Of a DNA stretch of 64,000 nucleotides, positions 2,460 through 36,311 are shown piece by piece. Under the pieces are notes generated by a model. The model was given only the letters and a program-made list of their open reading frames with translations. It searched no databases and was not told the DNA's origin. Numbering within the stretch: position 1 is the stretch's first letter; every line of letters begins with the position of its first letter. A program made the position numbers and the translations under genes. The DNA is from a phage: sequence record PZ338878.1. One strand, 5' to 3'.

Positions 2460-5234
2460 TTAGTTTACCAGTTTATTTATGTCTGGTAAAAGATTTATTT
2501 CACCTAAAAAATCACCTTCACCTTCCTCTAGCCAACTCTCATATGCTTGTGCATGATTATAGTTACCATCAAAAGAATCTGCAACAAATTTTTCTACAGT
2601 TTTTCGAGATGTGCCAGCGCCAAATACACCAAGTTTAATACCATTGATCGGTAAAGTAGGGCTTGTTGGTACTTTCTCTGTTGCAACACGGTTGATATCT
2701 ATAATCTCTTGTACAGTTGTATTCCATTGTAAGCATTTAACACAACGGGTATGCGCTACATACAGTAAGTTTCGCTCTGCCTCTTCTAGTCCTACCCATT
2801 CACCAGTCTTTTTATCATAGTTGGAAGGAAAATCATTAGCAACAATAACCTGATCCCACTCCAAACCTTTAGACTTATGTGCTGTAGTCAGTGTGACTTT
2901 TGCTGTAGGAGAATTTCTATGCGTTCTAAGTGTATGTGCTATAGTGTTTGCCTTGCCAGAAACTACGATGTTTAACAAGCGTTTAGCATCTGGATCAGCC
3001 TCTGCACACTCAACAAATTCATTCCAGTCTGCGTAAGGTAATACAGTTTCATGTTTTACTTTCTCAATATCCCCTCTCCGAAGAGCATTAACACTATCCA
3101 CCATAGAGATAAAATCCCTGGTATCTACGTTAATAATAATTTCTTCCCCATCTGCAATACGATCCATTGCCTCCATAAGCAAGGTTAAATTCTTGCGAAA
3201 GATGATAGTGTAAGGTTTTGTATAGTCTACAACATCTGATTTGTAGCTACCTACTACAGTATCAAAGCCTTTACCAACCAAAGGATGACGCAAAGGTTCT
3301 TTATCACTTAAAATCATATTCGCAATGTTTGCCACTTTGGGGCCAAAACGGAAGCAAGCAGTTAATGGAAGCTCTGCCCCATACTTAGCTGTTTCAATCA
3401 TCATATTAGAGCTACCTCTAAATTGATAAATGCAGTTGTGGCTAAGAATTTCATTGCCAAAAAAGTTAGCAGTATCTTCTACTTCAATATCATAATAGAT
3501 ACCCTCACTATCTACAATGTCCACAATCTCTTCTGCCGTTACAGTATCACCATCTTTTACTAACACAGACATGCCTTTAAACAAACCCGCTGCCGGAATT
3601 AAATTATATTTGGGAGTGTTCACAGAGGACATGCATTCTTTTAAAGATGCAAACGGAACTATTTCAAGGATCTTTTGTGCAAAACTCAATGCTTCACGAT
3701 AAGAATTGAAATATTTACGTACACGGTAACGACCTTCCAATTTAGCAACACTTACGCTTACACCTGCTTCAATGAGTGAGGCATAGATTGGCATTTCACT
3801 TTCTGTCCACTCAAAGCTAACTTGTGTTCCTTTACAACCTTGTGCTCGCAAAGTCACTGTTAACATTTTTCTTGCATCTACTGCACAATTGATGCTGTGC
3901 CAATGTGGATAAGCAAAATGATAGTCTTTATCCTCTAAAAGTTTAAAACCATTTTGTCCGAATTGTTCAAAGATATTGTTGATCCTTTCTTGATTAATAC
4001 CGCGTGAACTTGCTTCAAATACACAAGTAGGAATGCCATATTGTAAACTGTATGCCATTTCTTTTTCCATAGCAGCTTCACGGTTTTCAACAATATCCAA
4101 CACCCACAACTTCTGTGCTTTTTCAGAACGTGTACGTTGCCCCAGTTTAGAAAAACCTTCTTTATCATCGAATTTGTTAGTGATCCCTACTCGGAAACCT
4201 AAATCTTTTCTCCACATTAGGTATACCACCATCTGATCATCTTTCAGAACATAAGGTGAAGCCCAAATACGATGGTTATGTGTCATATCTAAAGTCTTAC
4301 CTTTAGCAGTAATAATATTCCTACCTTTTGTACGTGTAGATAAAGTCTTATTTGTTACTTTTCTAAATGTAACTTTACCGTTAGAATAAGACTCTACCTT
4401 ATCACCGATTTGCAGGTCTTTCATTGTAACCTGACCATTTTCGGTATTAAGTACCGTGTTTTCTGACACACATTGGAATTCATCACCAACTACCACAATT
4501 TGTTTGGCAGATTTAGCATTCCGCAGAATAGACAAGAATGCAGGGTTAACATCCTGGAATTCATCCCCAAAAATAATGTCATAACCAAGATCAGCACCAG
4601 ACAATTCAAACAATTTTACATAGGTGTCATGCGTCATCAAAGTATCTGTGTTAGGATCAATGCGCTCTCGCCACAATTGTTTTGCATACTTAACTACTTC
4701 TGTAATTAGTTTGTGTTCGTTAATACCTTTTCTTTTAATATCTGCAAGATGTACACCAGGAAAATGTTTACGGCTGATAAAAGGATCATCCGAAAATTCA
4801 AACTTACCTACGGTTTGCTTGATCATTAAACCAATCATAGCACGAGTTAAAAGTGTTTTCCCTCGTTTATCAATAAGATTATTAATCTTAAATTTCTTTG
4901 CTATCTCACTACCTGTACCTGCAACGTTAACATACTGTCCTTCTGGTCGTGACAGTTTTGCACGTAAACGATGATCCAGGAATTGATAGCAAATGGAATG
5001 CAATGTACGGCATTCTACATTTGGTGGCATCTTACGCCGTGCTTCTTCTGCCATGCTTTTATTGAAAGCTAAGTAAAGAATGCGATCTTCTGTACTGTTA
5101 GCCAGCAAATAAAGTGTTGACGTTTTTCCTGATCCAGATTTAGCTTGGATAGTTAAAAACCGATGATCTGGAAAAGCCTCCTTAATAGCTGTTTGCTCTT
5201 CTGTTGGAGTAAAACTCAACTCTTTCTTAGCCAT
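2460..5234 (-). CDS. SF1 UvrD/PcrA-like DNA helicase interrupted by an intein
   Basis: Walker A AKSGSGKT; DEFQD; helicase motif III split as VVGDEFQ / CIYQFRGSS; start taken at MAKKELSF (RBS GAGAGG) rather than track start. Confidence 0.8.
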   Translation of the reverse strand: MAKKELSFTPTEEQTAIKEAFPDHRFLTIQAKSGSGKTSTLYLLANSTEDRILYLAFNKSMAEEARRKMPPNVECRTLHSICYQFLDHRLRAKLSRPEGQYVNVAGTGSEIAKKFKINNLIDKRGKTLLTRAMIGLMIKQTVGKFEFSDDPFISRKHFPGVHLADIKRKGINEHKLITEVVKYAKQLWRERIDPNTDTLMTHDTYVKLFELSGADLGYDIIFGDEFQDVNPAFLSILRNAKSAKQIVVVGDEFQCVSENTVLNTENGQVTMKDLQIGDKVESYSNGKVTFRKVTNKTLSTRTKGRNIITAKGKTLDMTHNHRIWASPYVLKDDQMVVYLMWRKDLGFRVGITNKFDDKEGFSKLGQRTRSEKAQKLWVLDIVENREAAMEKEMAYSLQYGIPTCVFEASSRGINQERINNIFEQFGQNGFKLLEDKDYHFAYPHWHSINCAVDARKMLTVTLRAQGCKGTQVSFEWTESEMPIYASLIEAGVSVSVAKLEGRYRVRKYFNSYREALSFAQKILEIVPFASLKECMSSVNTPKYNLIPAAGLFKGMSVLVKDGDTVTAEEIVDIVDSEGIYYDIEVEDTANFFGNEILSHNCIYQFRGSSNMMIETAKYGAELPLTACFRFGPKVANIANMILSDKEPLRHPLVGKGFDTVVGSYKSDVVDYTKPYTIIFRKNLTLLMEAMDRIADGEEIIINVDTRDFISMVDSVNALRRGDIEKVKHETVLPYADWNEFVECAEADPDAKRLLNIVVSGKANTIAHTLRTHRNSPTAKVTLTTAHKSKGLEWDQVIVANDFPSNYDKKTGEWVGLEEAERNLLYVAHTRCVKCLQWNTTVQEIIDINRVATEKVPTSPTLPINGIKLGVFGAGTSRKTVEKFVADSFDGNYNHAQAYESWLEEGEGDFLGEINLLPDINKLVN
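3435..4472 (-). mobile_element. intein (346 aa) inserted in helicase motif III
   Basis: begins Cys (CVSENTVL), block-B-like THNH, ends SHN followed by Cys (CIYQFRG); flanking exteins reconstitute VGDEFQ-IYQFRG. Confidence 0.75.
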
Positions 5235-5720: not shown

Positions 5721-6236
5721 CTAGTAAAACCCCTTAACAATTTGTATTAACTCGGCACAACGGTTGACCAACTTTTCATCGTACAATACACGTTGTGGCA
5801 TATGTTGTATAATATACTCCATTTGCTCATGCCATGTCCACTTTTCTTTTTTGTCTGGGATAACATCACTAGCACGAGAATTATCTTTTAATGTTTGTAT
5901 AATCCAATTGCTTGGAAAGTGCTCTCCACCTTTCTTAAATGGTTTATAGTGGCCTAGAGTGAATTGAGAATCCCCTGTTAGAGCACCCAATTTATTTAGA
6001 TGGATAATCAAACTACGAAACACGTAGTATTCATAGATGTTATCCACCGTATAGCAAGCATAATATTTCAAGATGCCCTTATCTCGCGGATACTTACCAA
6101 CATCCAGATTACACCAGTTGACATTTTCTGGATCATAGTTGTGTTCCTTAAGCCATATTTCTCTTTCATCAAAGTCTGGGTATATTACCGCCCTGCTTAC
6201 AGAGTCAACAAGTGGAGATTGAGCATCAAAAAACAT
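5721..6236 (-). CDS. hypothetical protein (171 aa)
   Basis: ORF in operon. Confidence 0.5.
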   Translation of the reverse strand: MFFDAQSPLVDSVSRAVIYPDFDEREIWLKEHNYDPENVNWCNLDVGKYPRDKGILKYYACYTVDNIYEYYVFRSLIIHLNKLGALTGDSQFTLGHYKPFKKGGEHFPSNWIIQTLKDNSRASDVIPDKKEKWTWHEQMEYIIQHMPQRVLYDEKLVNRCAELIQIVKGFY

Positions 6237-8689: not shown

Positions 8690-8956
8690 CTAATTACTGT
8701 TAGATCTGTATTCTGTCTTCCATTCACAATGGTAAACTTCAACAGGTTCTAACTTCCAGTGTTCAGGAACTAATTCAGGGCAATATCTACAAAAGAGAAA
8801 TAGATAGATAATTAAGACAGGTATTAAATAGTAAAATGGTATACGATCATAACCATACTTACGAGATAACATGTAGACATATAGATAGGGTATAACAATT
8901 AATCCTATAACTATAAGTAAGAAGAGAAGTATAAACCTTAGTGTAGTAACATCCAT
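8690..8956 (-). CDS. small membrane protein (88 aa)
   Basis: two hydrophobic segments; AGGAGA RBS. Confidence 0.5.
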   Translation of the reverse strand: MDVTTLRFILLFLLIVIGLIVIPYLYVYMLSRKYGYDRIPFYYLIPVLIIYLFLFCRYCPELVPEHWKLEPVEVYHCEWKTEYRSNSN

Positions 8957-8983
8957 AGTATTCTCCTATACAGTAATATACTC

Positions 8984-9014
8984 TGTTCCTGCCCCTCCAT
9001 GAGTGGCAGGAACA
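8984..9014 (-). promoter_or_regulatory. intergenic hairpin immediately 5' of RBS of gene 8690..8956
   Basis: TGTTCCTGCC / GGCAGGAACA inverted repeat, 11-nt loop. Confidence 0.35.
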
Positions 9015-9033
9015 ATATCTATAGAGAATACTA

Positions 9034-9088
9034 ACTCGCTTCGCTCGTCACCTTTCAGGTTTAGGGTAGCATGTTTTTCTGAAAAAGT
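9034..9088 (+). repeat. conserved intergenic element, copy A (second copy at 36198..36250)
   Basis: CTCGCTTCGCTCG...TAGGGTAGCATGTTTTT...GAAAAAGT shared with copy B. Confidence 0.5.
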
Positions 9089-9120
9089 CAATACTCTCCA
9101 CAAAACTTTACAAAATACTT

Positions 9121-9393
9121 TTACATAGGTACAACAGAGTCTGTTTTGAAGTCGTACATATGATTTACACCTGTGATTTTTGACATAGAGATTGCACGTT
9201 TAACACCTGCAATTACCTGGTCTGTCTTCTTAATCTCTTCACGGAACTTACGTACAGTTAGAGAGAAGAAACGATGATCCATCCATTGACGGTTAACACG
9301 ATCACGTTTGAAGTGACGGAAATCTTCAATCTGTCTGTTACGCAAACGGCGCAGTACATATAATAATTCATAGTAAGGGTGTTTATTTTTCAT
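9121..9393 (-). CDS. hypothetical protein (90 aa)
   Basis: ORF. Confidence 0.5.
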   Translation of the reverse strand: MKNKHPYYELLYVLRRLRNRQIEDFRHFKRDRVNRQWMDHRFFSLTVRKFREEIKKTDQVIAGVKRAISMSKITGVNHMYDFKTDSVVPM

Positions 9394-17196: not shown

Positions 17197-17256
17197 TTGA
17201 CGTTCCTCACCTGGTAGCGTAGTATTCATCTTGTCGAGGGGCGGCAATAGTGCCGC
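17197..17256 (+). promoter_or_regulatory. promoter + 5'-UTR hairpin cassette
   Basis: TTGACG N17 TAGTAT; hairpin GGCGGCA-ATAG-TGCCGC. Confidence 0.6.
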
Positions 17257-17280
17257 TCATAACAGAAGAGAGAAATAATC

Positions 17281-17553
17281 ATGGCATCATATAGCGCATC
17301 AATGATCGTAATGGGTATCACTGGTAAACCTATGCGCGGTGGCGGATCTTTCGCTAACATCAACATTGACGGGCGTTTATCCCTGGACGCAGCGATCACA
17401 GTGGCACGGGAAACATTTAAAAAAGAATGTAATTTCAATAAACAAGATTATCTCGGTTTTGCTATTGAAAAAACCGCGCGCTTTGTGGATTATAAAAGCC
17501 CGAAAATGATCGACACTACACTAAAAGCGCAAGATGTAGCGTTTTTGCTTTAA
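17281..17553 (+). CDS. hypothetical protein (90 aa)
   Basis: RBS + ATG after cassette. Confidence 0.55.
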   Translation: MASYSASMIVMGITGKPMRGGGSFANINIDGRLSLDAAITVARETFKKECNFNKQDYLGFAIEKTARFVDYKSPKMIDTTLKAQDVAFLL

Positions 17554-17556
17554 GGT

Positions 17557-17618
17557 TTGACACTGAAAAATAATTGGGTAATATATACGACATAAGGCGG
17601 GGAAATGGTTTCCCCGCC
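17557..17618 (+). promoter_or_regulatory. promoter + 5'-UTR hairpin cassette
   Basis: TTGACA; hairpin GGCGGGGAAATGGTTTCCCCGCC. Confidence 0.6.
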
Positions 17619-17640
17619 AAATCAAAGAAAGGGTAATGCA

Positions 17641-18003
17641 ATGAGCAAGCAAATCAATACTATCATGTTTAATCTGGTATCTTTCCGCGATGACGTGAAA
17701 AATCTTTCGCGTGATGCAGTGGATGCACGGATCGAAAGCTATCGCACACAGATCGCAACGTTACCGCTGAAACGTGATCAACATGCCGCTAATATGATGC
17801 TTGATGCTATGATTAAAAAGATGATTCAATGTGATCTTACCCTGGCTTATGAATATGCTGGCGATCTCTTTGTAACATACAGCAAGCCCGTACCAGGCAT
17901 GAGCACCACGGAAGAATTGCATGCCTTAAATCTGCGACAAGATGCATGGGATAACATGCGCCGTGTTATGGTATGGGTAGAAAGCGGTAAAATTTACGAA
18001 TAA
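17641..18003 (+). CDS. hypothetical protein (120 aa)
   Basis: start at ATG 17641 after hairpin; track start 17605 lies inside hairpin. Confidence 0.55.
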   Translation: MSKQINTIMFNLVSFRDDVKNLSRDAVDARIESYRTQIATLPLKRDQHAANMMLDAMIKKMIQCDLTLAYEYAGDLFVTYSKPVPGMSTTEELHALNLRQDAWDNMRRVMVWVESGKIYE

Positions 18004-18009
18004 AAACGG

Positions 18010-18064
18010 TTGACATTGCACTAAAACCTGATAAGCTATCTTAAAGCGGGAATTGTTCCCGCTT
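18010..18064 (+). promoter_or_regulatory. promoter + 5'-UTR hairpin cassette
   Basis: TTGACA; hairpin AGCGGGAATTGTTCCCGCT with compensatory end pair. Confidence 0.55.
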
Positions 18065-18081
18065 ATATAGGATAAAACTTT

Positions 18082-18228
18082 ATGAAACAATATGTAATGA
18101 GTATTCATACCAAAAACGGCGCTACTGTTACGACTCCGGCACGGTTTGCACTTGTAAACCGTTGCAAGAGACTAAAACGAGAGCTAAAAAATAACCGTGC
18201 AACGGGCTTTAAACGCTGGGGAGGATAA
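18082..18228 (+). CDS. small basic protein (48 aa)
   Basis: hand-translated MKQYVMSIHTKNG...KRWGG. Confidence 0.4.
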   Translation: MKQYVMSIHTKNGATVTTPARFALVNRCKRLKRELKNNRATGFKRWGG

Positions 18229-18230
18229 TC

Positions 18231-18491
18231 TTGTTTTTTCTAAAAGTTTTTGATAATGTGATCGCTTTTGAACATGCTACAACGTTCGACCTGGCGAGAT
18301 ACGCTATCAGGTTTAAAGATAATGTTTATCCCCGTGCTGGCGGCGGTTACACTATTTTTAATCATCGCAACGCGCAACTGACTGATGTAACTAATCCAGA
18401 TCCTGGAGTGTATCGGATAGGCTGGCTACCGTCAAAAGACGCTGCAAGCATGTTTAAGGTATGTAAACTACTAACAGAAGAGGCGAACTAA
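18231..18491 (+). CDS. hypothetical protein (86 aa), TTG start
   Basis: GGAGG 6 nt upstream of TTG. Confidence 0.4.
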   Translation: MFFLKVFDNVIAFEHATTFDLARYAIRFKDNVYPRAGGGYTIFNHRNAQLTDVTNPDPGVYRIGWLPSKDAASMFKVCKLLTEEAN

Positions 18492-18492
18492 C

Positions 18493-19047
18493 ATGGGGCG
18501 TGAATATGTGATCCAGTCCTGGGTAAAGCATGATGTAAATGATCCGCGCATAATACCAGATGACATGATCGATCACATGGTAGGGTATAGCGGGGAGCAG
18601 ATAGGAAATCGAGCGGCAAAGAGCAACGGCAACACCAGGACGCGATCCGTTCGCCCTGGATGGCTGGCGAATGGTAACGCTGACATTGCAAGCGCCGCAG
18701 ATCCAAGCGATGACGCTAAAAATAATCCCTTATACAACATTGATCCGGCTTTTAAGGTATTGGAAGAGTATCCCGCTAAATTAGCCGCACTAGATAAGGC
18801 ATACGAAGAAAAGCGCATGGCCTGGACTGTATACAACACCGCTAAAATGGTGCTAGATGCAAAACTAATTAAAGCCCAGGAGAAGATCAATAAACTTGTT
18901 ACCATAGCGCAAGAGGAAGACCAGGGCGACCAGGAGGAAGAGGAAGAAATCATGCCTACTCTGGAAGAGGAAGAGATCCAGCCATACATGCCGACGGAAG
19001 AGGAAAAAAGACAAGCCTTAAAAAATTATGAAAATTGCATTGTGTAA
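18493..19047 (+). CDS. hypothetical protein with acidic C-terminus (184 aa)
   Basis: ORF, RBS. Confidence 0.5.
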   Translation: MGREYVIQSWVKHDVNDPRIIPDDMIDHMVGYSGEQIGNRAAKSNGNTRTRSVRPGWLANGNADIASAADPSDDAKNNPLYNIDPAFKVLEEYPAKLAALDKAYEEKRMAWTVYNTAKMVLDAKLIKAQEKINKLVTIAQEEDQGDQEEEEEIMPTLEEEEIQPYMPTEEEKRQALKNYENCIV

Positions 19048-19050
19048 GGG

Positions 19051-19155
19051 TTGACATATGCAAACAAGCCCCGTAATATGTACCACATAGAGCGGGGCAA
19101 CTTCTCAAAGGTGAAATAAAAAATCAGTTGACACCTGAAATCAGTAAGCTATAAT
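19051..19155 (+). promoter_or_regulatory. tandem promoters (first with degenerate hairpin)
   Basis: TTGACA at 19051 and TTGACA N16 TATAAT at 19128-19155. Confidence 0.5.
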
Positions 19156-19192
19156 GCTTATATAGATTGAAACATTACTAAGGAATAAAAGC

Positions 19193-19372
19193 ATGGCTAT
19201 TATTGCAAAAACTGAGATCGTAGGTTTAGATTCTATCCTCCTGGCATATGAGGAAGCTATAGAAATGTATGTGGTTTCCTATGGTGATTATATCCGTGAA
19301 TATAATTCTATTGATCTAGCTTTTGAATGCTATATTCGCCAGGTAAATAAAGCATACGATGATTATCGTTAA
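19193..19372 (+). CDS. small hypothetical protein (59 aa)
   Basis: hand-translated MAIIAKTEIVGLDSILLAYEEA...; RBS AAGGAA. Confidence 0.4.
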   Translation: MAIIAKTEIVGLDSILLAYEEAIEMYVVSYGDYIREYNSIDLAFECYIRQVNKAYDDYR

Positions 19373-19391
19373 AAGTTTTAGTCTTGTGCTA

Positions 19392-19421
19392 TTGACAACG
19401 AACGATAGTACAAGCATAATA
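19392..19421 (+). promoter_or_regulatory. sigma70-type promoter (no hairpin)
   Basis: TTGACA ... CATAAT. Confidence 0.45.
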
Positions 19422-19467
19422 ACTTTTATCGGGAACACTCCTAACTAATCAAAAGAGATTAAAGATT

Positions 19468-19833
19468 ATGGCTAAAAATATCAATGTTTCTGCTTATGCT
19501 ACCCTGGCTAACACTGCTAAAATTGAACTATCCAGCATTGAAGCGGTACATATTAGCGCCCGTCGCTGGTTTCAAAAGTCTTATGGTAATACTTATTTCT
19601 CTTTGATCGTTGACGTTGAGATCGGCGGTAAACTGATTGAAGTCGTTAACGTTCCGTTTCAATATGGTTATGGTGATCATTTTGATACCGTTGCCCTGGA
19701 AGAGTTTAGCAAGGTTATCAACCTGGAAGGTAAAGAGTTTTCAAATTATGCCTACCTTTCCCGTTTTTGCCGTGATAATGGGATCGCTGTATACAGTCAT
19801 GCAAGCGATGTTAAACGCAAAAAAGATTTATAA
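19468..19833 (+). CDS. hypothetical protein (121 aa)
   Basis: ORF, RBS. Confidence 0.55.
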   Translation: MAKNINVSAYATLANTAKIELSSIEAVHISARRWFQKSYGNTYFSLIVDVEIGGKLIEVVNVPFQYGYGDHFDTVALEEFSKVINLEGKEFSNYAYLSRFCRDNGIAVYSHASDVKRKKDL

Positions 19834-19838
19834 AAGTA

Positions 19839-19900
19839 TTGACAGCACGAATAAAAAGAGTAAAATGTTTCATATCAGGACGGGGGAATGGTTCCCCGCC
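19839..19900 (+). promoter_or_regulatory. promoter + 5'-UTR hairpin cassette
   Basis: TTGACA N16 TAAAAT; hairpin CGGGGGAATGGTTCCCCG. Confidence 0.6.
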
Positions 19901-19919
19901 TATAACTAGGTATAATAAA

Positions 19920-20150
19920 ATGGCTAATATGTATATGACCGAAGTTAAAACCGTAAAAGATACTACTACCAATAAAACTACTTACTTACAGCGGATCTGC
20001 GGTGTATGGCAACGTATTAGTAAAGCAAAGTATTATAAATTAACATCATATGCTAATCGTTCGGATTCATTCCGTACTGAAATAAAAGGTAATAAAGTAC
20101 ACCAATACGGCACTTATTATTATTATAGCCTAGACGCGATTGCAATCTAA
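19920..20150 (+). CDS. hypothetical protein (76 aa)
   Basis: start at ATG 19920 after hairpin. Confidence 0.5.
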   Translation: MANMYMTEVKTVKDTTTNKTTYLQRICGVWQRISKAKYYKLTSYANRSDSFRTEIKGNKVHQYGTYYYYSLDAIAI

Positions 20151-20169
20151 GCATATTTTTAAAAAGCAC

Positions 20170-20230
20170 TTGCAAACTAGGTTTAAAGGCGTATAATGTT
20201 TTGCATAGAGAGCGGGAATAGTTCCCGCCT
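20170..20230 (+). promoter_or_regulatory. promoter + 5'-UTR hairpin cassette
   Basis: TTGCAA N16 TATAAT; hairpin AGCGGGAATAGTTCCCGC. Confidence 0.6.
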
Positions 20231-20252
20231 CACTGAAAAAGAGATTAACATC

Positions 20253-20492
20253 ATGGCTAAATCTAAAATGTACAACGGTCACAAAAACAAAACTCATTGG
20301 AATGTAAGCCTTTGGATTAATAACGATCCAGGTTTTTATAATATGGCAAAAGAATTTATAGCCGTGAACAACAATAAAGATAACGCCGCGCGTGAAATGA
20401 TGGCACTACTTAACGAAATGGGCCAAAATACTACGCCAGATGGCTATAAATTCAGTAAAACCAGTATCCGCGCCGCTATGGTAGGAATGTAA
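20253..20492 (+). CDS. hypothetical protein (79 aa)
   Basis: start at ATG 20253. Confidence 0.5.
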   Translation: MAKSKMYNGHKNKTHWNVSLWINNDPGFYNMAKEFIAVNNNKDNAAREMMALLNEMGQNTTPDGYKFSKTSIRAAMVGM

Positions 20493-20501
20493 TAAAAACA
20501 G

Positions 20502-20561
20502 TTGACAACGTTTTTTAATCTGATAAGATGTATCACATAGGGCGGGAAATGGTTTCCCGCC
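20502..20561 (+). promoter_or_regulatory. promoter + 5'-UTR hairpin cassette (consensus copy)
   Basis: TTGACA...CTGATAAG...CACATAGGGCGGGAAATGGTTTCCCGCC. Confidence 0.65.
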
Positions 20562-20583
20562 AAATCAAAGAAAGGTTAACATT

Positions 20584-20811
20584 ATGGCTATCGTTATTGT
20601 TCGCGTATCCGGAACGGTTGGAATCTCCCAGGTAGTAGCAGTTATCACAGAAAAGAAAGGGGATGATCTTCACTCCTCCTTGAATAGCTGGGCGGTCGCT
20701 AACTTTGGGCAATGGTCGAGCGTTGAGTACATCGAATCCTACCAGGTGCCAACGATTAGCCTAACCGATCTAAATGTTGATCGCTTGTTGTGCCTGGATC
20801 AATTAAACTAA
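20584..20811 (+). CDS. hypothetical protein (75 aa)
   Basis: RBS AAAGG + ATG. Confidence 0.5.
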   Translation: MAIVIVRVSGTVGISQVVAVITEKKGDDLHSSLNSWAVANFGQWSSVEYIESYQVPTISLTDLNVDRLLCLDQLN

Positions 20812-20819
20812 AAATAATA

Positions 20820-20877
20820 TTGACAAGATAACTAAAATCAGTAAAATGTAATGCATAGGGCGGCAATAGTGCCGCCC
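20820..20877 (+). promoter_or_regulatory. promoter + 5'-UTR hairpin cassette
   Basis: TTGACA N16 TAAAAT; hairpin GGGCGGCAATAGTGCCGCCC (compensatory G/C swap). Confidence 0.6.
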
Positions 20878-20898
20878 CTAGTGAGAGAGATTATCAAA

Positions 20899-21114
20899 AT
20901 GGCTAATATCCGCACACTGTTAAAAAATGCAAGTCAAGTTTTATTTTCAGATGACGAGTATTTCAACAAAGACATTACAGGCGTGAAAAATTTAAAAGAC
21001 GTGAAGGATGTTATCGGTATCCGTGGATCTTTACGTAAAGGTGACATATACGGTAACAAGGTGCAATATAAATTGTCAAAAGATTATGATTTTACTTTGA
21101 CAATTATTTCATAA
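20899..21114 (+). CDS. hypothetical protein (71 aa)
   Basis: start at ATG 20899; track start lies in hairpin. Confidence 0.5.
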   Translation: MANIRTLLKNASQVLFSDDEYFNKDITGVKNLKDVKDVIGIRGSLRKGDIYGNKVQYKLSKDYDFTLTIIS

Positions 21115-21120
21115 AACTAC

Positions 21121-21181
21121 TTGCAAACCTGGTAAAATAAAGTAAACTATATTCATTAAGGCGGTGGAATAGCCCACCGCC
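21121..21181 (+). promoter_or_regulatory. promoter + 5'-UTR hairpin cassette
   Basis: TTGCAA ... TAAACT; hairpin GGCGGTGG-AATAGC-CCACCGCC. Confidence 0.55.
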
Positions 21182-21204
21182 TAACAAAGAGAAGAGGAAA
21201 CATC

Positions 21205-21375
21205 ATGATCACTTTCGCCACCCGTGAAGCCGCTCGCAACGTTGCACGTAAAGTTAACGCCGCCAACCTGGGCGCTACGCTTAAAGCCCCGGTAAAAGAT
21301 GAATCAGGAAAATGGATCTTTCCTGGTCTGCGTCACGCTGATAAGCTGGGAACATTAACGTTAAAAAACAAATAA
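21205..21375 (+). CDS. small hypothetical protein (56 aa)
   Basis: hand-translated MITFATREAARNVARKVNAANLG...; RBS AGAGGAAA. Confidence 0.45.
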   Translation: MITFATREAARNVARKVNAANLGATLKAPVKDESGKWIFPGLRHADKLGTLTLKNK

Positions 21376-21381
21376 TATCCG

Positions 21382-21440
21382 TTGACAGTAGCATCATTTA
21401 TAAGTAAAGTAACAACAACGGCGGGAAATGGTTTCCCGCC
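21382..21440 (+). promoter_or_regulatory. promoter + 5'-UTR hairpin cassette
   Basis: TTGACA ... TAAAGT; GGCGGGAAATGGTTTCCCGCC. Confidence 0.65.
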
Positions 21441-21460
21441 ATCAATAAAGAGATAAGATT

Positions 21461-21820
21461 ATGAAATCAGTAAAAGCAATTAAAACTTACATTGTGTCGG
21501 CTATTTCTTTTGATGGTACTACAACCGAAAAAGAAAAGATCACCGAACTGATGCGCCGTTTTAACTCTGAATACTGGTATCCCGATAATCAAAAACGTTA
21601 CAATCATAACATGACCAAGGCGATAGCCTCATGGTTACAAGGTTTACCGTCAGAAGTCAATATTGCTTTTGATTATAATGAGATCGATCACTTGTTAATT
21701 GAATGGAAGTGCATAAAAGAAACAAGCAAAGAAACAACCGTTACCCGTGAGCGGGAAAATTATTGGTTATATATTGCAAGCATGATCGTAATCCTGGCAA
21801 AACAGCATAACGTGGCGTAA
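21461..21820 (+). CDS. hypothetical protein (119 aa)
   Basis: ORF, RBS. Confidence 0.55.
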   Translation: MKSVKAIKTYIVSAISFDGTTTEKEKITELMRRFNSEYWYPDNQKRYNHNMTKAIASWLQGLPSEVNIAFDYNEIDHLLIEWKCIKETSKETTVTRERENYWLYIASMIVILAKQHNVA

Positions 21821-21834
21821 TTAAGAGGAAAAAC

Positions 21835-21972
21835 ATGAACGCATCACAGCAGATCGAAAAATTCAACCGCAGCAAGGCGCGTAAAAATTGGAACGAAGAG
21901 ATCACCAAAAAAGGCGATAAGCGGAACAAAACAAAAAGAGATCGCAGTACAAAAAGACACTGGAACGAATAA
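21835..21972 (+). CDS. small highly basic protein (45 aa)
   Basis: hand-translated MNASQQIEKFNRSKARKNWNEEITKKGDKRNKTKRDRSTKRHWNE; RBS AGAGGAAAAAC. Confidence 0.4.
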   Translation: MNASQQIEKFNRSKARKNWNEEITKKGDKRNKTKRDRSTKRHWNE

Positions 21973-21977
21973 CAAAA

Positions 21978-21996
21978 AGGGCGCAATAAGCGCCCT
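21978..21996 (+). terminator. rho-independent terminator
   Basis: GGGCGC-AATAA-GCGCCC + TTTTA. Confidence 0.6.
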
Positions 21997-22090
21997 TTTA
22001 GCTTATATAGAGGCTTGTTACCCATAGGCAATGGTAACGCCAGGGCAAGCCTATAAATCAACGTTAGACAGCTTTACAGGAGCTTTAAAA

Positions 22091-22273
22091 ATGAAATTAA
22101 ACGAAATAAGCAAGGCACTAGCCCAGGGTCAAAGGTTATGCGCCCGATATCGTGATCAATATGGCTTCATGACTAGCGGCGTGATCCTGGGGATTGAAGG
22201 TAATAAAATTTTTATTGACACGTTGAAAAACGTTGTATATAGTGACAATATAATCTCAATAAAACATATATGA
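22091..22273 (+). CDS. hypothetical protein (60 aa)
   Basis: start at ATG 22091. Confidence 0.45.
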   Translation: MKLNEISKALAQGQRLCARYRDQYGFMTSGVILGIEGNKIFIDTLKNVVYSDNIISIKHI

Positions 22274-22281
22274 GGCAAGAA

Positions 22282-22683
22282 ATGAAAAAATTATTGATCG
22301 CTGGTTTAATCTCTTTTGGCATGGTTGGAACATCTAGCGCGGCGATATCCTCCACAGTAGCAGAATTAAGCGCCGTTGATGCAATGGAAAACGTCATGAT
22401 CATTAATAACGCGATCCCCGATGAAATCATGGAGGATTCTCACATGATCGCTTATGGTGCTGTTACACAATTAACGGCAAAAATAGATAAATCTATTGTT
22501 AATGGCTTAAATGAAGATGTACCATGTGAAATTATTACCAGTGTGCTAACGACTCAAAATTTTACGCCGTGGCTAAAAAGTATTCAAAAGGTACACAGCA
22601 CCGCCGCAGATCGTAGCAATGAAAAACTAGTGTCAGCACTTGCAACGTATACCCTAGCAAAATGCACCGAAATAAAAGATTGA
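22282..22683 (+). CDS. putative secreted/periplasmic protein (133 aa)
   Basis: signal-peptide-like MKKLLIAGLISFGMVGTSSAA. Confidence 0.5.
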   Translation: MKKLLIAGLISFGMVGTSSAAISSTVAELSAVDAMENVMIINNAIPDEIMEDSHMIAYGAVTQLTAKIDKSIVNGLNEDVPCEIITSVLTTQNFTPWLKSIQKVHSTAADRSNEKLVSALATYTLAKCTEIKD

Positions 22684-22706
22684 CAACATAGAAAGCACGT
22701 TATAAG
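22680..22706 (+). promoter_or_regulatory. sigma70-type promoter (no hairpin)
   Basis: TTGACA N15 TATAAG. Confidence 0.45.
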
Positions 22707-22730
22707 ATACACACAACAAAGGAGAACTAC

Positions 22731-23033
22731 ATGAACGGCATAGCTAAAACGTTTTTTCTTTTTTCTGGTGTAAATGATCCATCAATAAAAGTCGATAGCG
22801 TAAAAGAAAACAATACTATCACCGCTAAATTGTTTCAAGATGAAACAAATAACGTGCTAATCATTAATCTTAAAGAAATAACGAAAGGTTATTATACTAT
22901 TGCTTACCATGCGATCTATCATGCTGGTACTAGCGAGGAAGTGCAAACAAGCAACAACGAAAGCGCGGCGCTACCTGGTGATCTGGTGCTGGGCGTTATC
23001 AGTTTAATTGTCAATGATTTTTTTAAGGAGTAA
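22731..23033 (+). CDS. hypothetical protein (100 aa)
   Basis: RBS AAAGGAGAA. Confidence 0.5.
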   Translation: MNGIAKTFFLFSGVNDPSIKVDSVKENNTITAKLFQDETNNVLIINLKEITKGYYTIAYHAIYHAGTSEEVQTSNNESAALPGDLVLGVISLIVNDFFKE

Positions 23034-23037
23034 AACC

Positions 23038-23133
23038 ATGCCCTATTTACATTTATTTTTCGGGATCTTATTGTCAGGATCTTTTTTCTTCTGTATACTT
23101 GTTTCTATTGTAAACCACGTTTTAAGACATTAA
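23038..23133 (+). CDS. small hydrophobic peptide (31 aa)
   Basis: AAGGAG 7 nt upstream; MPYLHLFFGILLSGSFFFCILVSIV. Confidence 0.35.
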   Translation: MPYLHLFFGILLSGSFFFCILVSIVNHVLRH

Positions 23134-23142
23134 GGAAACAGC

Positions 23143-23262
23143 ATGAAAATTATTCCCGTACAGTATAGCGTAATAAATCCAGCATATGAGGAAGGAAGGA
23201 AAACAAGCATGGCTTTATGTTGTATTACTACTATAGCCATGTTATTATATATTGTGTTTTAA
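23143..23262 (+). CDS. small peptide with hydrophobic C-terminus (39 aa)
   Basis: RBS AAGGAAA; hand-translated. Confidence 0.3.
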   Translation: MKIIPVQYSVINPAYEEGRKTSMALCCITTIAMLLYIVF

Positions 23263-23362
23263 TAGGTTTTATAGTTGTACGCTTTAAAGGCTTTACAATT
23301 TTTTGTTATGCTTTAAAATATATCTTGAAAACGGCAAAGGCCGCAAACAAAAGGGTAAAATT

Positions 23363-23686
23363 ATGAAATCTGTGATCGGTGTTTATTTGGATAACTCTGA
23401 TTTTTTCTATCATCGTGCGCGTTTCCTTGATGCGATTGAAATGATAGAATCAGGCTTTAAAGAGTATCGCCTTGCACATGATGACCTGGAAGCATTACAG
23501 GGTAATAGTGTTTTTACATTGCAAGCTAAAGCACTATGCAAAAGCCGGATCGACATTGCAAGCAAAAAGATAGAACGCGGCATGTCCTGGTTGCGCACCG
23601 CAGAAATCAACATGGGGCAATGGTACGGCGAAAACTTAGAAAATAAACTCACTTTTGTAAATGTAGAAAATATTAAAGATTATTGA
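23363..23686 (+). CDS. hypothetical protein (107 aa)
   Basis: start at ATG 23363. Confidence 0.5.
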   Translation: MKSVIGVYLDNSDFFYHRARFLDAIEMIESGFKEYRLAHDDLEALQGNSVFTLQAKALCKSRIDIASKKIERGMSWLRTAEINMGQWYGENLENKLTFVNVENIKDY

Positions 23687-23749
23687 TTGACAGCACACCT
23701 GATAAGTAATATATTGTATCTCATAGAGCGGGGAAATGGTTTCCCCGCC
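23687..23749 (+). promoter_or_regulatory. promoter + 5'-UTR hairpin cassette
   Basis: TTGACA ... CTGATAAG TAATAT ... GCGGGGAAATGGTTTCCCCGC. Confidence 0.65.
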
Positions 23750-23768
23750 TTAACAGAAGAGATAAGAT

Positions 23769-24053
23769 ATGAAAATCACAAAAGCACTTTTCAACTATGC
23801 AGCACGTCGCGGATTATGCTTATCCGTTGAAAATTTAGGAAAAGAAGATTTTTTGTGCTTTTGGGAGCTTGAGAATGATAATGAGTGGATCTTCTCTTAT
23901 TCTATCTGCAAAGATCAAAACGGTTGCTTGTTAACCTGGCGCGGTAATATCTATTTGCCGGAAGAAATAAAACAAGAATTACCAGGCACGATCATGACTG
24001 AGAAACAGCTTAAGGAAGTGATCAATTTTGTAGGGCAAAACATTAAAAAATAA
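23769..24053 (+). CDS. hypothetical protein (94 aa)
   Basis: ORF, RBS. Confidence 0.55.
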   Translation: MKITKALFNYAARRGLCLSVENLGKEDFLCFWELENDNEWIFSYSICKDQNGCLLTWRGNIYLPEEIKQELPGTIMTEKQLKEVINFVGQNIKK

Positions 24054-24054
24054 T

Positions 24055-24114
24055 TTGACAGTAGGCAAACAACGTAGTAAAGTTTATCACATAGGGCGGG
24101 AAATGGTTTCCCGC
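24055..24114 (+). promoter_or_regulatory. promoter + 5'-UTR hairpin cassette
   Basis: TTGACA N17 TAAAGT; GGGCGGGAAATGGTTTCCCGCT. Confidence 0.65.
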
Positions 24115-24137
24115 TCACAGCAGAAGAGAAACAAATC

Positions 24138-24308
24138 ATGATCCCGACTATGTTTTACGTATCGCGCAAAGGTCACAATATTTTTTGGTCTGAAGATTTA
24201 AATGAAGCCATGACGTTTGCCCGTGATCGTGTTGCTATCGGTGGCGTTAATATTACCGTAACCGATGAAAACGGCATTGAATACTATAACGGCGACGATG
24301 AAGAGTAA
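24138..24308 (+). CDS. small hypothetical protein (56 aa)
   Basis: hand-translated MIPTMFYVSRKGHNIFWSEDLNEAMTFA... Confidence 0.45.
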   Translation: MIPTMFYVSRKGHNIFWSEDLNEAMTFARDRVAIGGVNITVTDENGIEYYNGDDEE

Positions 24309-24316
24309 TTAATAAG

Positions 24317-24337
24317 GCGGGGGGAGTATTCCCCGCC
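24317..24337 (+). promoter_or_regulatory. 5'-UTR hairpin (no own -35 seen)
   Basis: GGCGGGG-GGAGTATT-CCCCGCC. Confidence 0.45.
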
Positions 24338-24366
24338 ATCAATTCACAACTAAAAGAGAAATCATC

Positions 24367-24561
24367 ATGGCGCTTAAAAAACTAACAAGCAATACTCGTT
24401 GGGATGAAATTGACGGGGAAGTATACATTTTCGCCCGTAAACCAGGTGATCAAAAATGGTCAAAGGCTTTTACTTGTCACCCTGCAACAATAGATCTAAT
24501 AAAAAGTAAAGGTTTACGTGAAGCAGTAGCGAGAAGTTTACTGATCCCTTGTAAAAAATAG
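24367..24561 (+). CDS. hypothetical protein (64 aa)
   Basis: ORF, RBS. Confidence 0.5.
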   Translation: MALKKLTSNTRWDEIDGEVYIFARKPGDQKWSKAFTCHPATIDLIKSKGLREAVARSLLIPCKK

Positions 24562-24562
24562 T

Positions 24563-24622
24563 TTGACAATATGCGGTTATCTGGTAATATATACCACGTA
24601 GGGCGGGAAATGGTTTCCCGCC
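24563..24622 (+). promoter_or_regulatory. promoter + 5'-UTR hairpin cassette
   Basis: TTGACA N16 TAATAT; GGGCGGGAAATGGTTTCCCGCC. Confidence 0.65.
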
Positions 24623-24640
24623 AGAATAGAGAGAACTAAA

Positions 24641-24745
24641 ATGATTATTCTTACCATGATGTGCGCGGCGGTTATTATTCCTTTGATAACGCTTATTGTT
24701 TCTGAGATCGATGATCTTCTCTTTGAAAGAAGTTTAAAAAAGTGA
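24641..24745 (+). CDS. small membrane peptide (34 aa)
   Basis: MIILTMMCAAVIIPLITLIVSEIDDLLFERSLKK. Confidence 0.4.
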   Translation: MIILTMMCAAVIIPLITLIVSEIDDLLFERSLKK

Positions 24746-24808
24746 TTGACAACGGCTAATAAGCTGATAATATGTATCACATAGGGCGGGGCAATAAGGC
24801 AACGCCCA
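24746..24808 (+). promoter_or_regulatory. promoter + degenerate hairpin cassette
   Basis: TTGACA ... CTGATAATATG ... ATAGGGCGGGGCAATAAGGCAACGCCC. Confidence 0.5.
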
Positions 24809-24825
24809 CTAATGAGGGTAGCATC

Positions 24826-24930
24826 ATGTTAGAGAAAATTTTCACGGTTGTAATAGTGGGCCTGGCGTTATCGGTTGGAGTGATTGCAACTATGGCTAAC
24901 ATGATTCTATCTTCCCACGGTATCGGCTAA
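24826..24930 (+). CDS. small membrane peptide (34 aa)
   Basis: MLEKIFTVVIVGLALSVGVIATMANMILSSHGIG. Confidence 0.4.
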   Translation: MLEKIFTVVIVGLALSVGVIATMANMILSSHGIG

Positions 24931-24931
24931 G

Positions 24932-25156
24932 GTGAAACAAGTGATCACGAATAAGACAGGTAAAACAGAATTTTTACGTAACTTGCAGATCGGCAAGCCT
25001 GAGATCTGGTATTGCACTAAAACACCACGTGACGAAATGAAAGATTTTACCGCTACTTTACAACGTGTTAAAATATCTATCACACAGAAAAAAGCCTTGA
25101 TAGTTGCAGAAAACGAGATCCCGCAAACTATTATCATTGTTGAGCGTACAGCATGA
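24932..25156 (+). CDS. hypothetical protein (74 aa), GTG start
   Basis: ORF from track; weak RBS. Confidence 0.35.
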   Translation: MKQVITNKTGKTEFLRNLQIGKPEIWYCTKTPRDEMKDFTATLQRVKISITQKKALIVAENEIPQTIIIVERTA

Positions 25157-25539
25157 AAACAGAAAACATTAACGAAATGATCAACGGCTATAAAGAAGCC
25201 TTTATTTTTGCCGAACCAGCGACGGATCACAATGGGGAATATATTGAGAATCTAGACGATTATGATTTTTCTTCTAGCGCCCTGGAACGTATTACCAGCG
25301 ATGTGACCGCCTTTTGTAGTGCCAATGTTGCCGCTATCTCTGAGGCAATGAGCGACGGCGCTACAGCAAACCAGATCGGGAATGATTTACATTTCACCCG
25401 CAACGGGCACGGCGTAGGCTTTTGGGATCGCCCTGAAATATACACCACTAACACGGCGAACCGCCTAACAAATGCCGCTAAATTAATGCCATCGGTGCAT
25501 GCTTACATTGGTGAAGATAATTTGATTTATATTGAATAA
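25153..25539 (+). CDS. hypothetical protein (128 aa)
   Basis: ORF overlapping upstream by 4 nt. Confidence 0.5.
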   Translation: MKTENINEMINGYKEAFIFAEPATDHNGEYIENLDDYDFSSSALERITSDVTAFCSANVAAISEAMSDGATANQIGNDLHFTRNGHGVGFWDRPEIYTTNTANRLTNAAKLMPSVHAYIGEDNLIYIE

Positions 25540-25545
25540 AAAGTA

Positions 25546-25604
25546 TTGACACCGATCCCCAATATGGTATTATTTACCACGTAGGCGGGAAATGGTTTCC
25601 CGCC
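25546..25604 (+). promoter_or_regulatory. promoter + 5'-UTR hairpin cassette
   Basis: TTGACA N16 TATTAT; GGCGGGAAATGGTTTCCCGCC. Confidence 0.65.
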
Positions 25605-25627
25605 AGGTAATCAAAAAGGTAAATACT

Positions 25628-26017
25628 ATGCGCAACCTGGTTTCTGTTTCTAACGTTGAAAAATTCCAATCCTTGCAGGGTATCGTTAACAACGTAGCGC
25701 CTTTTTTAGTCAATGGCTTGATTGCAAAGATGAAGAATAAGCATCATGCGGCATGGTCTGCTTACTGCTTTGATAATGATGAAAAAGCGGCTGAAATGAT
25801 GTTAGATATGCTGTTAGACAGTGTTGAATCATCTTTACCGGAAAACATCGCAGAAGAGATCACCTATCGTTATAATATGGCGATCACTTACCAGGAGGTT
25901 GCGCAATTTAATATGATGGACGATGACGAACAACAGGATCAAGAAATGTTTTGGGAGTATGCTGATCGTCAATCGGCTTTTGATGAAAAATTAGCGATGT
26001 ATTATAACGAATATTAA
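25628..26017 (+). CDS. hypothetical acidic protein (129 aa)
   Basis: start at ATG 25628. Confidence 0.5.
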   Translation: MRNLVSVSNVEKFQSLQGIVNNVAPFLVNGLIAKMKNKHHAAWSAYCFDNDEKAAEMMLDMLLDSVESSLPENIAEEITYRYNMAITYQEVAQFNMMDDDEQQDQEMFWEYADRQSAFDEKLAMYYNEY

Positions 26018-26033
26018 TACACGGTAAAAGAAA

Positions 26034-26052
26034 GGGGCGCACTAAGCGCCCT
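26034..26052 (+). terminator. rho-independent terminator
   Basis: GGGGCGC-ACTAA-GCGCCCC + TTTTTT. Confidence 0.7.
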
Positions 26053-26479
26053 TTTTTGTATTCTTTTTTCACGATGGAAACAACACGTAAAGAATAGGCG
26101 TAAAGGTGGCGTAAAACCAGCTAAAACCGATTGTAACCGTTTAAACAAGGTAGGGATGATTAATCACCTTACCAGGATGAAAAAGCCGTTATAAAGCTAT
26201 TTAGAGCGTTTAAAGCACACAGGAAATAATTTGCTTTTTATCTTGCCTTTTATTCTGCTTTTGATTATTATTATGGAACGGGCGGCACCTGGGGACAGGG
26301 GAAGATAATCACCGGACGACCCCGCTATATATTGATAGCTAATAACTATCAAACAACAAAACATCAAAGGAATAAACTATCAAATCTTTACAATTCTACC
26401 TATTGACCGATAAATCATAACAGTTTAATATTGTTTTTAGAGGGTAGAACATACCCAAAACGAAAACAGGAAAAAGAAG

Positions 26480-26716
26480 ATGAAAGAAGTCATGATCCTC
26501 AAAAAATCACCTATTTTACGTGGTGGCTTTATCGCTTACTCTGATGATCTGTTAATTGCAACGGTTGCAAAAATACTAAAATCAGAAGAGGATAGTAAAA
26601 ACGGCGTTTATCGTATCTGTTTCACCCGTGGAAAATTACAAGGCAAGATCGCTTATGCTTTTGATTTACAAGATGTAAATGATAAAATCTGCGCTGTTAT
26701 TGATTATGCAAAATAA
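26480..26716 (+). CDS. hypothetical protein (78 aa)
   Basis: RBS AGGAAAAAGAAG. Confidence 0.5.
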   Translation: MKEVMILKKSPILRGGFIAYSDDLLIATVAKILKSEEDSKNGVYRICFTRGKLQGKIAYAFDLQDVNDKICAVIDYAK

Positions 26717-26728
26717 TTAACTTTCTTA

Positions 26729-26760
26729 TTGACACCGGATCACGCTTACATTATTATTTA
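26729..26760 (+). promoter_or_regulatory. sigma70-type promoter (hairpin absent or degenerate)
   Basis: TTGACA ... TATTAT. Confidence 0.45.
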
Positions 26761-27433: not shown

Positions 27434-27508
27434 AAATGATAATCATTCTTATTTATAGCTGATTATTTATGCAATAAACTGCATAATGCAATAATGATAA
27501 TCATTCTT
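27434..27508. promoter_or_regulatory. two Fur-box-like sites
   Basis: AAATGATAATCATTCTT and AATAATGATAATCATTCTT. Confidence 0.4.
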
Positions 27509-27517
27509 AACTTATGA

Positions 27518-36104: not shown

Positions 36105-36197
36105 GAGTAGTAAGTAAGATATAAAGAGTATATAGTTAGTTATAGAGTTAGTAACATTACATATACTCTTTCCATGTATAACATGGAATATTCTCTA

Positions 36198-36250
36198 CCT
36201 CGCTATCGCTCGGTATATAAGATTAGGGTAGCATGTTTTTTACGAAAAGT
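36198..36250 (+). repeat. conserved intergenic element, copy B
   Basis: CTCGCTATCGCTCGG...TAGGGTAGCATGTTTTTT...GAAAAGT matching 9034..9088. Confidence 0.5.
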
Positions 36251-36311
36251 AAAACTGTTTGTACCGATTGATAGCAGGTTTTTAATAGATTTCATCTATG
36301 AGGAGTAGAAA

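Follow-up and report, generated by a model that had tools for sequence, protein, structure and literature searches.

What does a short non-coding sequence do that occurs in two separate intergenic regions of one phage genome? The stretch analysed here, 64,000 nucleotides of record PZ338878.1 (hereafter, the window), carries an element of about 55 bp, which an earlier note placed at 9034-9088 and 36198-36250 in the same orientation and tentatively described as a small RNA, a phage-specific promoter or a homing site. Both copies, referred to as A and B, are found at these plus-strand coordinates, and the strands of the neighbouring genes are as described there: copy A lies between minus-strand genes and copy B upstream of a plus-strand gene. 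The element is a real, conserved regulatory module, which had been read on the wrong strand. Its sequence makes it probably a sigma70 extended −10 promoter followed by a 5′-leader hairpin tag, both on the minus strand.

The phage and the copies of the element

The window belongs to a phi92-like myovirus (Justusliebigvirus, Stephanstirmvirinae), and the regions flanking both copies are 97-99% identical to those of phi92-like coliphages. The closest complete genome is that of phage EC.P2 (PQ631072.1), which is near-identical to the window and the arbitrary origin of whose record falls inside it. The whole EC.P2 genome, 148 kb, was put together from three sequence pieces for copy counting. In the GenBank records inspected, the element is covered by occasional ‘hypothetical proteins’ and nothing else; in the phi92 record, otherwise rich in annotation, nothing is marked in any of the three intergenic regions of the element. 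A literature search on the sequence string and the phage group found no paper describing the element and no transcriptome. No tRNA or tmRNA was found within the window. A comparison with Rfam 15 gave no gathering-level match in the window and, around both copies, chance-level matches only, permissive thresholds included.

On the plus strand, the two copies consist of two conserved blocks separated by a spacer:

9035-9047, plus strand: copy A, first block CTCGCTTCGCTCG, followed by a 13-nt spacer
9061-9078, plus strand: copy A, second block, the 18-mer TTAGGGTAGCATGTTTTT
36199-36212, plus strand: copy B, first block CTCGCTATCGCTCG, followed by a 10-nt spacer
36223-36240, plus strand: copy B, the same 18-mer TTAGGGTAGCATGTTTTT

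The 18-mer is common to the two copies beyond chance: it has exactly 2 occurrences in the window, even when up to three mismatches are allowed, against a mean of 0.11 in shuffled sequences. The first block had been described as differing by two substitutions; the actual difference is a 1-nt indel (T vs AT), and the spacer is 3 nt longer in copy A than in copy B.

The element is present twice in the window, as had been claimed, but the near-identical EC.P2 genome contains a third copy (C) at 59,993-60,037, outside the window and on the strand opposite to the other two. Copy C lies within a divergent intergenic region between a nucleotide-metabolism/lysis cluster and an NAD/tRNA/structural cluster. 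A covariance model built from 11 sequence variants finds exactly three copies in EC.P2, scoring 85, 71 and 61 bits, with the next best match at 15 bits. Its matches in the window are:

9017-9096, minus strand: copy A, 85.1 bits
36184-36258, minus strand: copy B, 61.5 bits

The hairpin motif CGAGC-N3-5-GCGAG likewise occurs three times in the 148 kb, each time 10-20 nt behind TGCTACCCTAA. No copy was found in E. coli genomes. The lack of further copies had been named as grounds for dismissing the element; against this stand copy C and the conservation of the element in more than 130 phage records.

The distance of 27 kb given for copies A and B holds on a circular map, but probably not on virion DNA. 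For the close relative BME3, a direct terminal repeat of 342 bp has been annotated (PMC12210895); it corresponds to window positions 28,350-28,691, between the two copies. The surrounding region, about 27,320-29,070, comprises 1.7 kb without an annotated gene in EC.P2 and contains the mapped repeat. The physical genome ends probably lie within this region, between copies A and B, and on virion DNA the two copies would then sit near opposite ends. A genome end or terminal-repeat boundary was rejected as the identity of the element itself, the BME3 repeat being far from both copies.

Short open reading frames of 41-45 aa run across the element (8966-9103, minus strand; 9003-9128, plus strand; 36174-36308, plus strand), and in several records such frames are labelled hypothetical proteins, e.g., bas60_0093 and bas62_0168. 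That the element is a small protein-coding gene, or a target of homing or recombination, is highly improbable. Although these frames overlap both copies and are annotated in some records, the spacer lengths, 10, 11, 12, 13 and 14 nt, are without codon periodicity, the copies differ by indels of 1-4 nt, stop codons interrupt the plus-strand frame of copy C and of ESCO13-B, and the minus-strand frame exists at copy A only. As the frames are not kept between copies, they are probably not genes, and the GenBank hypothetical proteins drawn across the element are probably mis-annotations, corrected by this analysis. The idea of a homing site finds no endonuclease gene adjoining the element, and the PaulScherrer insertion polymorphism lies elsewhere, more than 1 kb from copy A. 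The genome does encode a DNA invertase, which could speak for a recombination target, but the copies are not placed as inverted sites for such an enzyme.

Promoter-like anatomy of the minus strand

Diverged copies were gathered from Phapecoctavirus (ESCO5, ESCO13 and phiWec179), Klebsiella phage KP2025 and IMG/VR contigs. In every copy, across three genus-level lineages, the minus strand has the same layout: a −35 box, a spacer, TGn, TACCCT, AA, a segment of 6-14 nt and a hairpin. In the window, these parts are located as follows:

9029..9091, minus strand: whole module of copy A (promoter and leader hairpin)
9086..9091, minus strand: −35 box of copy A, TTGACT
9063..9071, minus strand: extended −10 of copy A, TGC + TACCCT, after a 17-nt spacer; AA at 9061-9062; predicted start near G 9056
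9050..9060, minus strand: palindrome ACCTGAAAGGT of copy A, between the −10 and the hairpin
36196..36253, minus strand: whole module of copy B
36248..36253, minus strand: −35 box of copy B, TTTACT, a weaker variant, also in the KP2025 B copy
36225..36233, minus strand: extended −10 of copy B, TGC + TACCCT, after a 17-nt spacer; predicted start near A 36218

The −35 box is TTGACT in 8 of the 11 variants, TTGACA in one and TTTACT in one (phi92-like copy B), TTTACT appearing again in KP2025-B; in alignment A3, the columns TT.AC are invariant, and conservation reaches 90% or more at the G and the final T. The spacer between the −35 and −10 boxes is variable in sequence and measures 17 nt in nine variants and 18 nt in two. 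The TG at −15/−14 is invariant, with changes confined to the n position (TGG in ESCO13-B, TGA in L056), and TACCCT is invariant in 11/11 variants, with AA directly after it. This is the sequence make-up of a sigma70 extended −10 promoter: a TTGACA-like −35, a spacer of 17 ± 1 nt with TG, and TAnnnT. On the minus strand, the length-variable segment of 6-14 nt lies after the −10, where changes in length are tolerated.

The −10 box is less typical. TACCCT keeps T−12, A−11 and T−7 but matches TATAAT at only 3/6 positions, so a generic promoter scanner calls the element in neither orientation. This mismatch is a weakness of the promoter reading, partly offset by the TG motif. A further point against the reading is the invariance of GCTACCCTAA, which is stricter than a −10 element needs. 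In rV5-type phages, host-like promoters have been reported, 11/33 of them with extended −10 regions; neither an RNA polymerase nor a late sigma factor is known among their genes, and use of the host polymerase is expected for the group (PMC3606486). The promoter suggested earlier thus persists in this reading, but its strand is the opposite one and its type that of the host.

The palindrome between the −10 and the hairpin is not conserved in sequence, and its hairpin potential recurs in most copies. The palindromes, as well as a larger CCCCC...GGGGG stem of copy C, begin at about −4; they would therefore not be wholly inside an RNA started 7 nt after the −10, which hints at a structure at the DNA level and counts against the promoter reading.

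The invariant hairpin

The hairpin closes the module of both copies in the window:

9032..9050, minus strand: hairpin of copy A, core CGAGC-GAA-GCGAG at 9035-9047 with three flanking pairs
36196..36215, minus strand: hairpin of copy B, core CGAGC-GATA-GCGAG at 36199-36212 with three flanking pairs

The core, CGAGC-(GAA/GATA/GCA)-GCGAG, is made up of the pairs C-G, G.A, A.G, G-C and C-G and a GNA/GNNA loop. Its stem is invariant across the copies, and the loop (GAA, GATA, GCA) and the flanks vary. The three flanking pairs covary (C-G, A-U, U-A, U-G): 88.5% of cells are paired, compared with 27-46% in controls where the partner was slid by 1-3 columns. The covariation score of the flanks is 0.374 versus 0.160 in shuffled alignments, with 0/500 shuffles reaching 0.374; as the variants are related by descent, these statistics overstate independence and are supportive rather than proof. 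Five cells in one flank pair are G.U, which would be C.A mismatches on the other strand, and folding is more favourable for the purine strand than for the complementary one (−3.5 vs 0 and −7.9 vs −4.9 kcal/mol). Together, these features indicate that the hairpin belongs to the promoter (minus) strand. The folding energies are modest, with z = −1.1 for copy A and about 0 for copy C; the copy B hairpin has −7.9 kcal/mol and z = −3.7.

An intrinsic terminator was considered and rejected, with no terminator call at copy A and no U run directly after the hairpin in copies A, B and C. In unrelated metagenomic matches, the hairpin 13-mer is extended by at least three flanking complementary pairs in 38/137 cases (28%), versus 1.6% expected, and the 13-mer seems to be a stable cap for hairpins in general. 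In DNA, GNA triloops with a closing C-G pair are exceptionally stable.

Conservation and distribution in relatives

The synteny and orientation of copies A, B and C are conserved in Justusliebigvirus, Phapecoctavirus and Klebsiella phage KP2025. In KP2025, the covariance model finds exactly three copies in the approximately 140 kb searched, all but about 9.8 kb of the genome. Copy A of this phage lies inside the minus-strand cluster, in the sense orientation, copy C is at the divergent head of the NAD/tRNA/terminase cluster, also sense, and copy B lies between plus-strand early genes, antisense and with the weaker TTTACT −35. About 70 nt after the predicted start of KP2025 copy A, just ahead of the first gene, there is a strong stem followed by UUUUCUUUU. 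In Phapecoctavirus, the contexts of copies A and B are the same as in phi92-like phages. The plus-strand genes that follow copy B in ESCO13 have a TTGACA-17-TTACAT promoter of their own about 130 nt further on, so no plus-strand promoter is needed inside the element.

Pattern scans of metagenomes and IMG/VR gave mostly chance matches and a handful of true relatives. One of the latter, on contig L041 (IMGVR_UViG_3300011753_000040, 4700-4790), is a complete module with TTGACT, an 18-nt spacer, TGCTACCCTAA and the hairpin. It is located in an unrelated integrative island, directly after a tyrosine integrase gene, and points into the downstream genes, which makes sense only in the minus-strand (promoter) orientation. 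The integrase has E. coli relatives of up to 90% identity, but the region of the island with the module is absent from 5,426 complete E. coli genomes. Behind the module comes a non-coding stretch of about 900 nt, in which a unit of about 50 nt is duplicated, and then genes for an endonuclease VII, a primase-like protein (DUF5906), a regulator of the HTH type, an invertase and an Eco29kI restriction–modification pair; the island also carries a second integrase. The presence of the module in such an unrelated island shows that it is a portable unit, and L041 is possibly a satellite-like element responding to these phages.

Contig L047 (IMGVR_UViG_3300037840_000216, 5851-5925), an 84-kb phage contig, has TGTGCTACCCTAA followed by the same hairpin, here with GAAA as its loop and lengthened by five pairs, located between convergent genes after an RNR gene, without a −35 box and with a T-rich run after it. 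It was left out of the family; the missing −35 box and the convergent genes look like the use of the hairpin as a terminator. In many unrelated contigs, mostly from soil metagenomes (e.g., L086, L087, L100, L112, L129, L138, L149 and L180), the 13-mer CTCGCTNCGCTCG is found inside GATCC-CTCGCTNCGCTCG-GGATGACA and other arm-flanked hairpins; this unit looks like a widespread repeat or hairpin motif.

A promoter reading the plus strand, as supposed earlier, would be phage-specific, with CTCGCTNCGCTCG as the upstream recognition element and TTAGGGTAGCAT as the core. Copy B does precede plus-strand genes, copy C so oriented would face the nucleotide-metabolism and lysis cluster, and the phi92-like B region offers the next gene only a weak sigma70-like candidate. 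The plus strand of the element, however, has no −35/−10 geometry, and the distance between the conserved blocks varies from 10 to 14 nt. The conserved TTGACT would fall about 20 nt inside the transcript without a reason, an antisense or convergent arrangement would result for copy A and for the copy of L041, and the G.U pairs put the hairpin on the other strand. With the absence of a known polymerase or late sigma factor in rV5-type phages (PMC3606486) added to this, a plus-strand promoter is very unlikely.

Surroundings of the three copies

Read as a minus-strand promoter, the element has its strand relations reversed: copy A becomes sense to its neighbours and copy B an orphan antisense copy. 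The regions that would be transcribed contain the following features:

8954..9034, minus strand: leader stem of copy A, in which UAGUAUUCUC pairs with GGAGAAUACUA; inner hairpin at 8990-9018
8690..8956, minus strand: first gene after copy A, coding for a predicted membrane protein of 88 aa that resembles phi92 gp208
36124..36186, minus strand: two more hairpins past copy B (36172-36186 and 36124-36170), then a U-rich tail

The predicted 100-nt leader of copy A folds with a minimum free energy of −37.9 kcal/mol (z = −4.67), and 0/200 shuffles fold as well. The predicted stem covers the ribosome-binding site (GGAG) and the ATG of the gp208-like gene, which suggests translational control (a lock) or an RNase III site.

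No ORF was found downstream of copy B on the minus strand. The copy points back towards the early genes and is predicted to give a non-coding RNA about 105 nt long, which would end where the upstream plus-strand operon ends; a scan of the plus strand identifies the hairpin 36170-36188 as terminator-like. The absence of a gene to express at copy B, in all three lineages, counts against the promoter reading. It is also the setting for the small-RNA proposal, in which the element would be the hairpin-led 5′ segment of a small-RNA family, free at B and perhaps processed from the leaders of A and C, serving as a regulator or protein decoy. The predicted copy B transcript, with three hairpins, a U-rich end and no ORF, fits such a proposal, as do the recurrence of the three-hairpin layout at the Phapecoctavirus B copy, where the sequence is different, and the stem with UUUUCUUUU after KP2025 copy A. 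The copies, however, share just the first 25 nt or so, with the remainder unrelated, the terminators at phi92-like copies are weak or absent, and neither an Rfam match nor target complementarity was identified. The small RNA proposed earlier is thus retained as the possible product of copy B, again from the opposite strand; as an explanation of the whole element, a small-RNA family is unlikely.

The product of the second gene after copy B (36521-36793, plus strand) is 90 aa long and shows a zinc-finger signature of the DnaJ type, CxxCxGxG, with weak Pfam matches; BASEL records call it a DNA-binding protein. Several neighbours are labelled ‘putative transcription factor’ without family support. 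Pfam and PHROG searches with the neighbouring proteins gave no informative match and no functional clue.

Copy C heads the NAD/tRNA/structural cluster. In EC.P2, very AT-rich DNA of about 190 nt separates it from a second promoter, TTGACT-17-TAGAGT, after which comes the first gene; the layout with AT-rich DNA and a second promoter is found in two other lineages too.

Comparison with known systems

The element resembles E. coli sigma70 extended −10 promoters in its TTGACA-like −35, the 17-18 nt spacer, TG at −15/−14 and T−12, A−11 and T−7. Unlike them, it has a −10 that is always TACCCT + AA across genera and always coupled to one hairpin, and it occurs only three times per 148-kb genome, once without a gene.

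A parallel exists within the phage itself. A scan for TTGAC-N16-18-TAnnnT identifies about 15 near-consensus early promoters on the plus strand at window positions 17,197-26,757 (TTGACA, 16-17 nt, TAATAT-like), for example:

17557-17584, plus strand: early promoter
20502-20529, plus strand: early promoter
24563-24590, plus strand: early promoter

About 10 nt behind each of them lies a conserved G+C hairpin, either GGGCGGGAAATGGTTTCCCGCC or a version with compensatory changes, ahead of the ribosome-binding site of a small gene. A promoter plus a 5′ hairpin is, therefore, the usual style of this phage, and the element shares this architecture. The early-promoter hairpins, however, have ordinary G-C stems with compensatory changes, whereas the stem of the element is invariant and non-canonical. 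The element would then be a second, rarer promoter class. An invariant non-canonical stem, combined with a variable loop and flanks, suggests that the hairpin is specifically recognised by a factor rather than merely stabilising. Stabilising 5′ stem-loops, such as that of the ompA 5′ UTR, are similar in that the hairpin lies within a few nt of the predicted 5′ end.

The lambda nut boxA/boxB and the HK022 put RNA also occur in few copies per genome, each shortly after a promoter of the host type, and what is recognised in them is a small hairpin having a GNRA-like loop; the terminator-like stem between KP2025 copy A and the first gene recalls lambdoid antitermination. The element differs from these signals in the tandem G.A mismatches of its stem and in being carried by a virulent myovirus. 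Among the neighbouring proteins, Pfam and PHROG revealed none that is N-like or Q-like. A lambda-type nut site was rejected: no boxA (CGCUCUUA-like) is present 5′ of the hairpin on the RNA strand, and the loops are of 3-4 nt, not pentaloops. In the 12-nt ops element of RfaH, GGCGGTAGnnTG, which acts as a hairpin of the non-template DNA strand and has G5 and T6 conserved, 9/12 positions are the same as in copy B, AGCGATAGCGAG. Copy B can form the same G-C, C-G, G.A mini-hairpin and lies within an early transcribed region. However, the critical G5 is A in copy B, and the loop is 1 nt shorter in copies A and C. A tblastn search of the phage detected no NusG/RfaH homologue. The host RfaH/ops system was rejected on these grounds, the likeness being confined to copy B.

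The T4 origins oriF and oriG and the T7 primary origin share with the element a promoter that has a structured or AT-rich region behind it, a few copies per genome and one copy without a gene. The element could act at the DNA level, e.g., as an origin of replication primed by transcription (R-loop) or as a signal for initiation on single strands. Its promoter would give a purine-rich primer RNA, and the displaced non-template strand would fold into a very stable GCGAAGC-type hairpin, keeping the bubble open. Such an origin would account for copy B as a promoter without a gene and for palindromes that begin upstream of the predicted RNA start, and would suit the very AT-rich stretch after copy C in three lineages and the L041 module placed ahead of long non-coding DNA, upstream of the primase-like gene. 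The capping of longer hairpins by the 13-mer in many unrelated genomes and the stability of C-G-closed GNA triloops in DNA point in the same direction. Unlike the T4 and T7 origins, copies A and B have no defined unwinding element, and they lack iterons and DnaA-type boxes. The AT-rich tract at copy C may instead be the upstream region of the next promoter, and the G.U (G.T) flank pairs suit RNA better than DNA. GC skew was rejected as a replication signal, since it just follows the gene strand. A DNA-level role is about as unlikely as a small-RNA family.

Proposed function and biological significance

The element is an unannotated member of a familiar kind, a promoter with a leader structure, and has unusual features. 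The promoter activity, the start sites, the action of the hairpin as RNA and any regulatory consequence are deduced from the sequence. According to the preferred reading, a promoter with a hairpin-tagged leader, the host polymerase would read the three modules, and the hairpin would begin about 2-10 nt into each transcript. Copy A would restart transcription of the minus-strand (replication-side) cluster, with a leader that may hide the ribosome-binding site of the first gene. Copy C would act about 190 nt upstream of the ordinary promoter, the second one, with which the NAD/tRNA/structural cluster begins, and copy B, having no gene, would fire back towards the early genes, giving a short non-coding or antisense RNA. 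The hairpin tag might be the recognition site of a trans-acting factor or a 5′ stabiliser, marking the three transcripts as a co-regulated class; its effect may concern RNA stability, factor binding, antitermination or the priming of replication.

A more specific proposal, with a small but real chance of being right, is that the hairpin is the cis tag of a dedicated control system, whose factor, encoded by the phage or hijacked from the host, reads the nascent RNA or the displaced DNA strand and switches the three units together. If so, the replication-side and structural-side clusters would be turned on while an antisense RNA is fired into the early region. This would represent a nut/put/ops-like logic in a family of virulent myoviruses, beyond the temperate phages, and the L041 module could belong to a satellite-like element listening in on the phage signal.

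Phages of the rV5/phi92 group are widely used in therapy collections, and transcription control in these large coliphages is essentially unmapped. The element adds to this picture a putative three-member promoter class with a fixed leader tag, whose position and orientation are kept in at least three genus-level lineages. It also offers handles on this control: three predicted starts, one predicted non-coding RNA, one leader predicted to hide a ribosome-binding site and a 13-nt hairpin. If the hairpin is a factor-binding tag, it would show how phages that lack a polymerase of their own order their gene expression.
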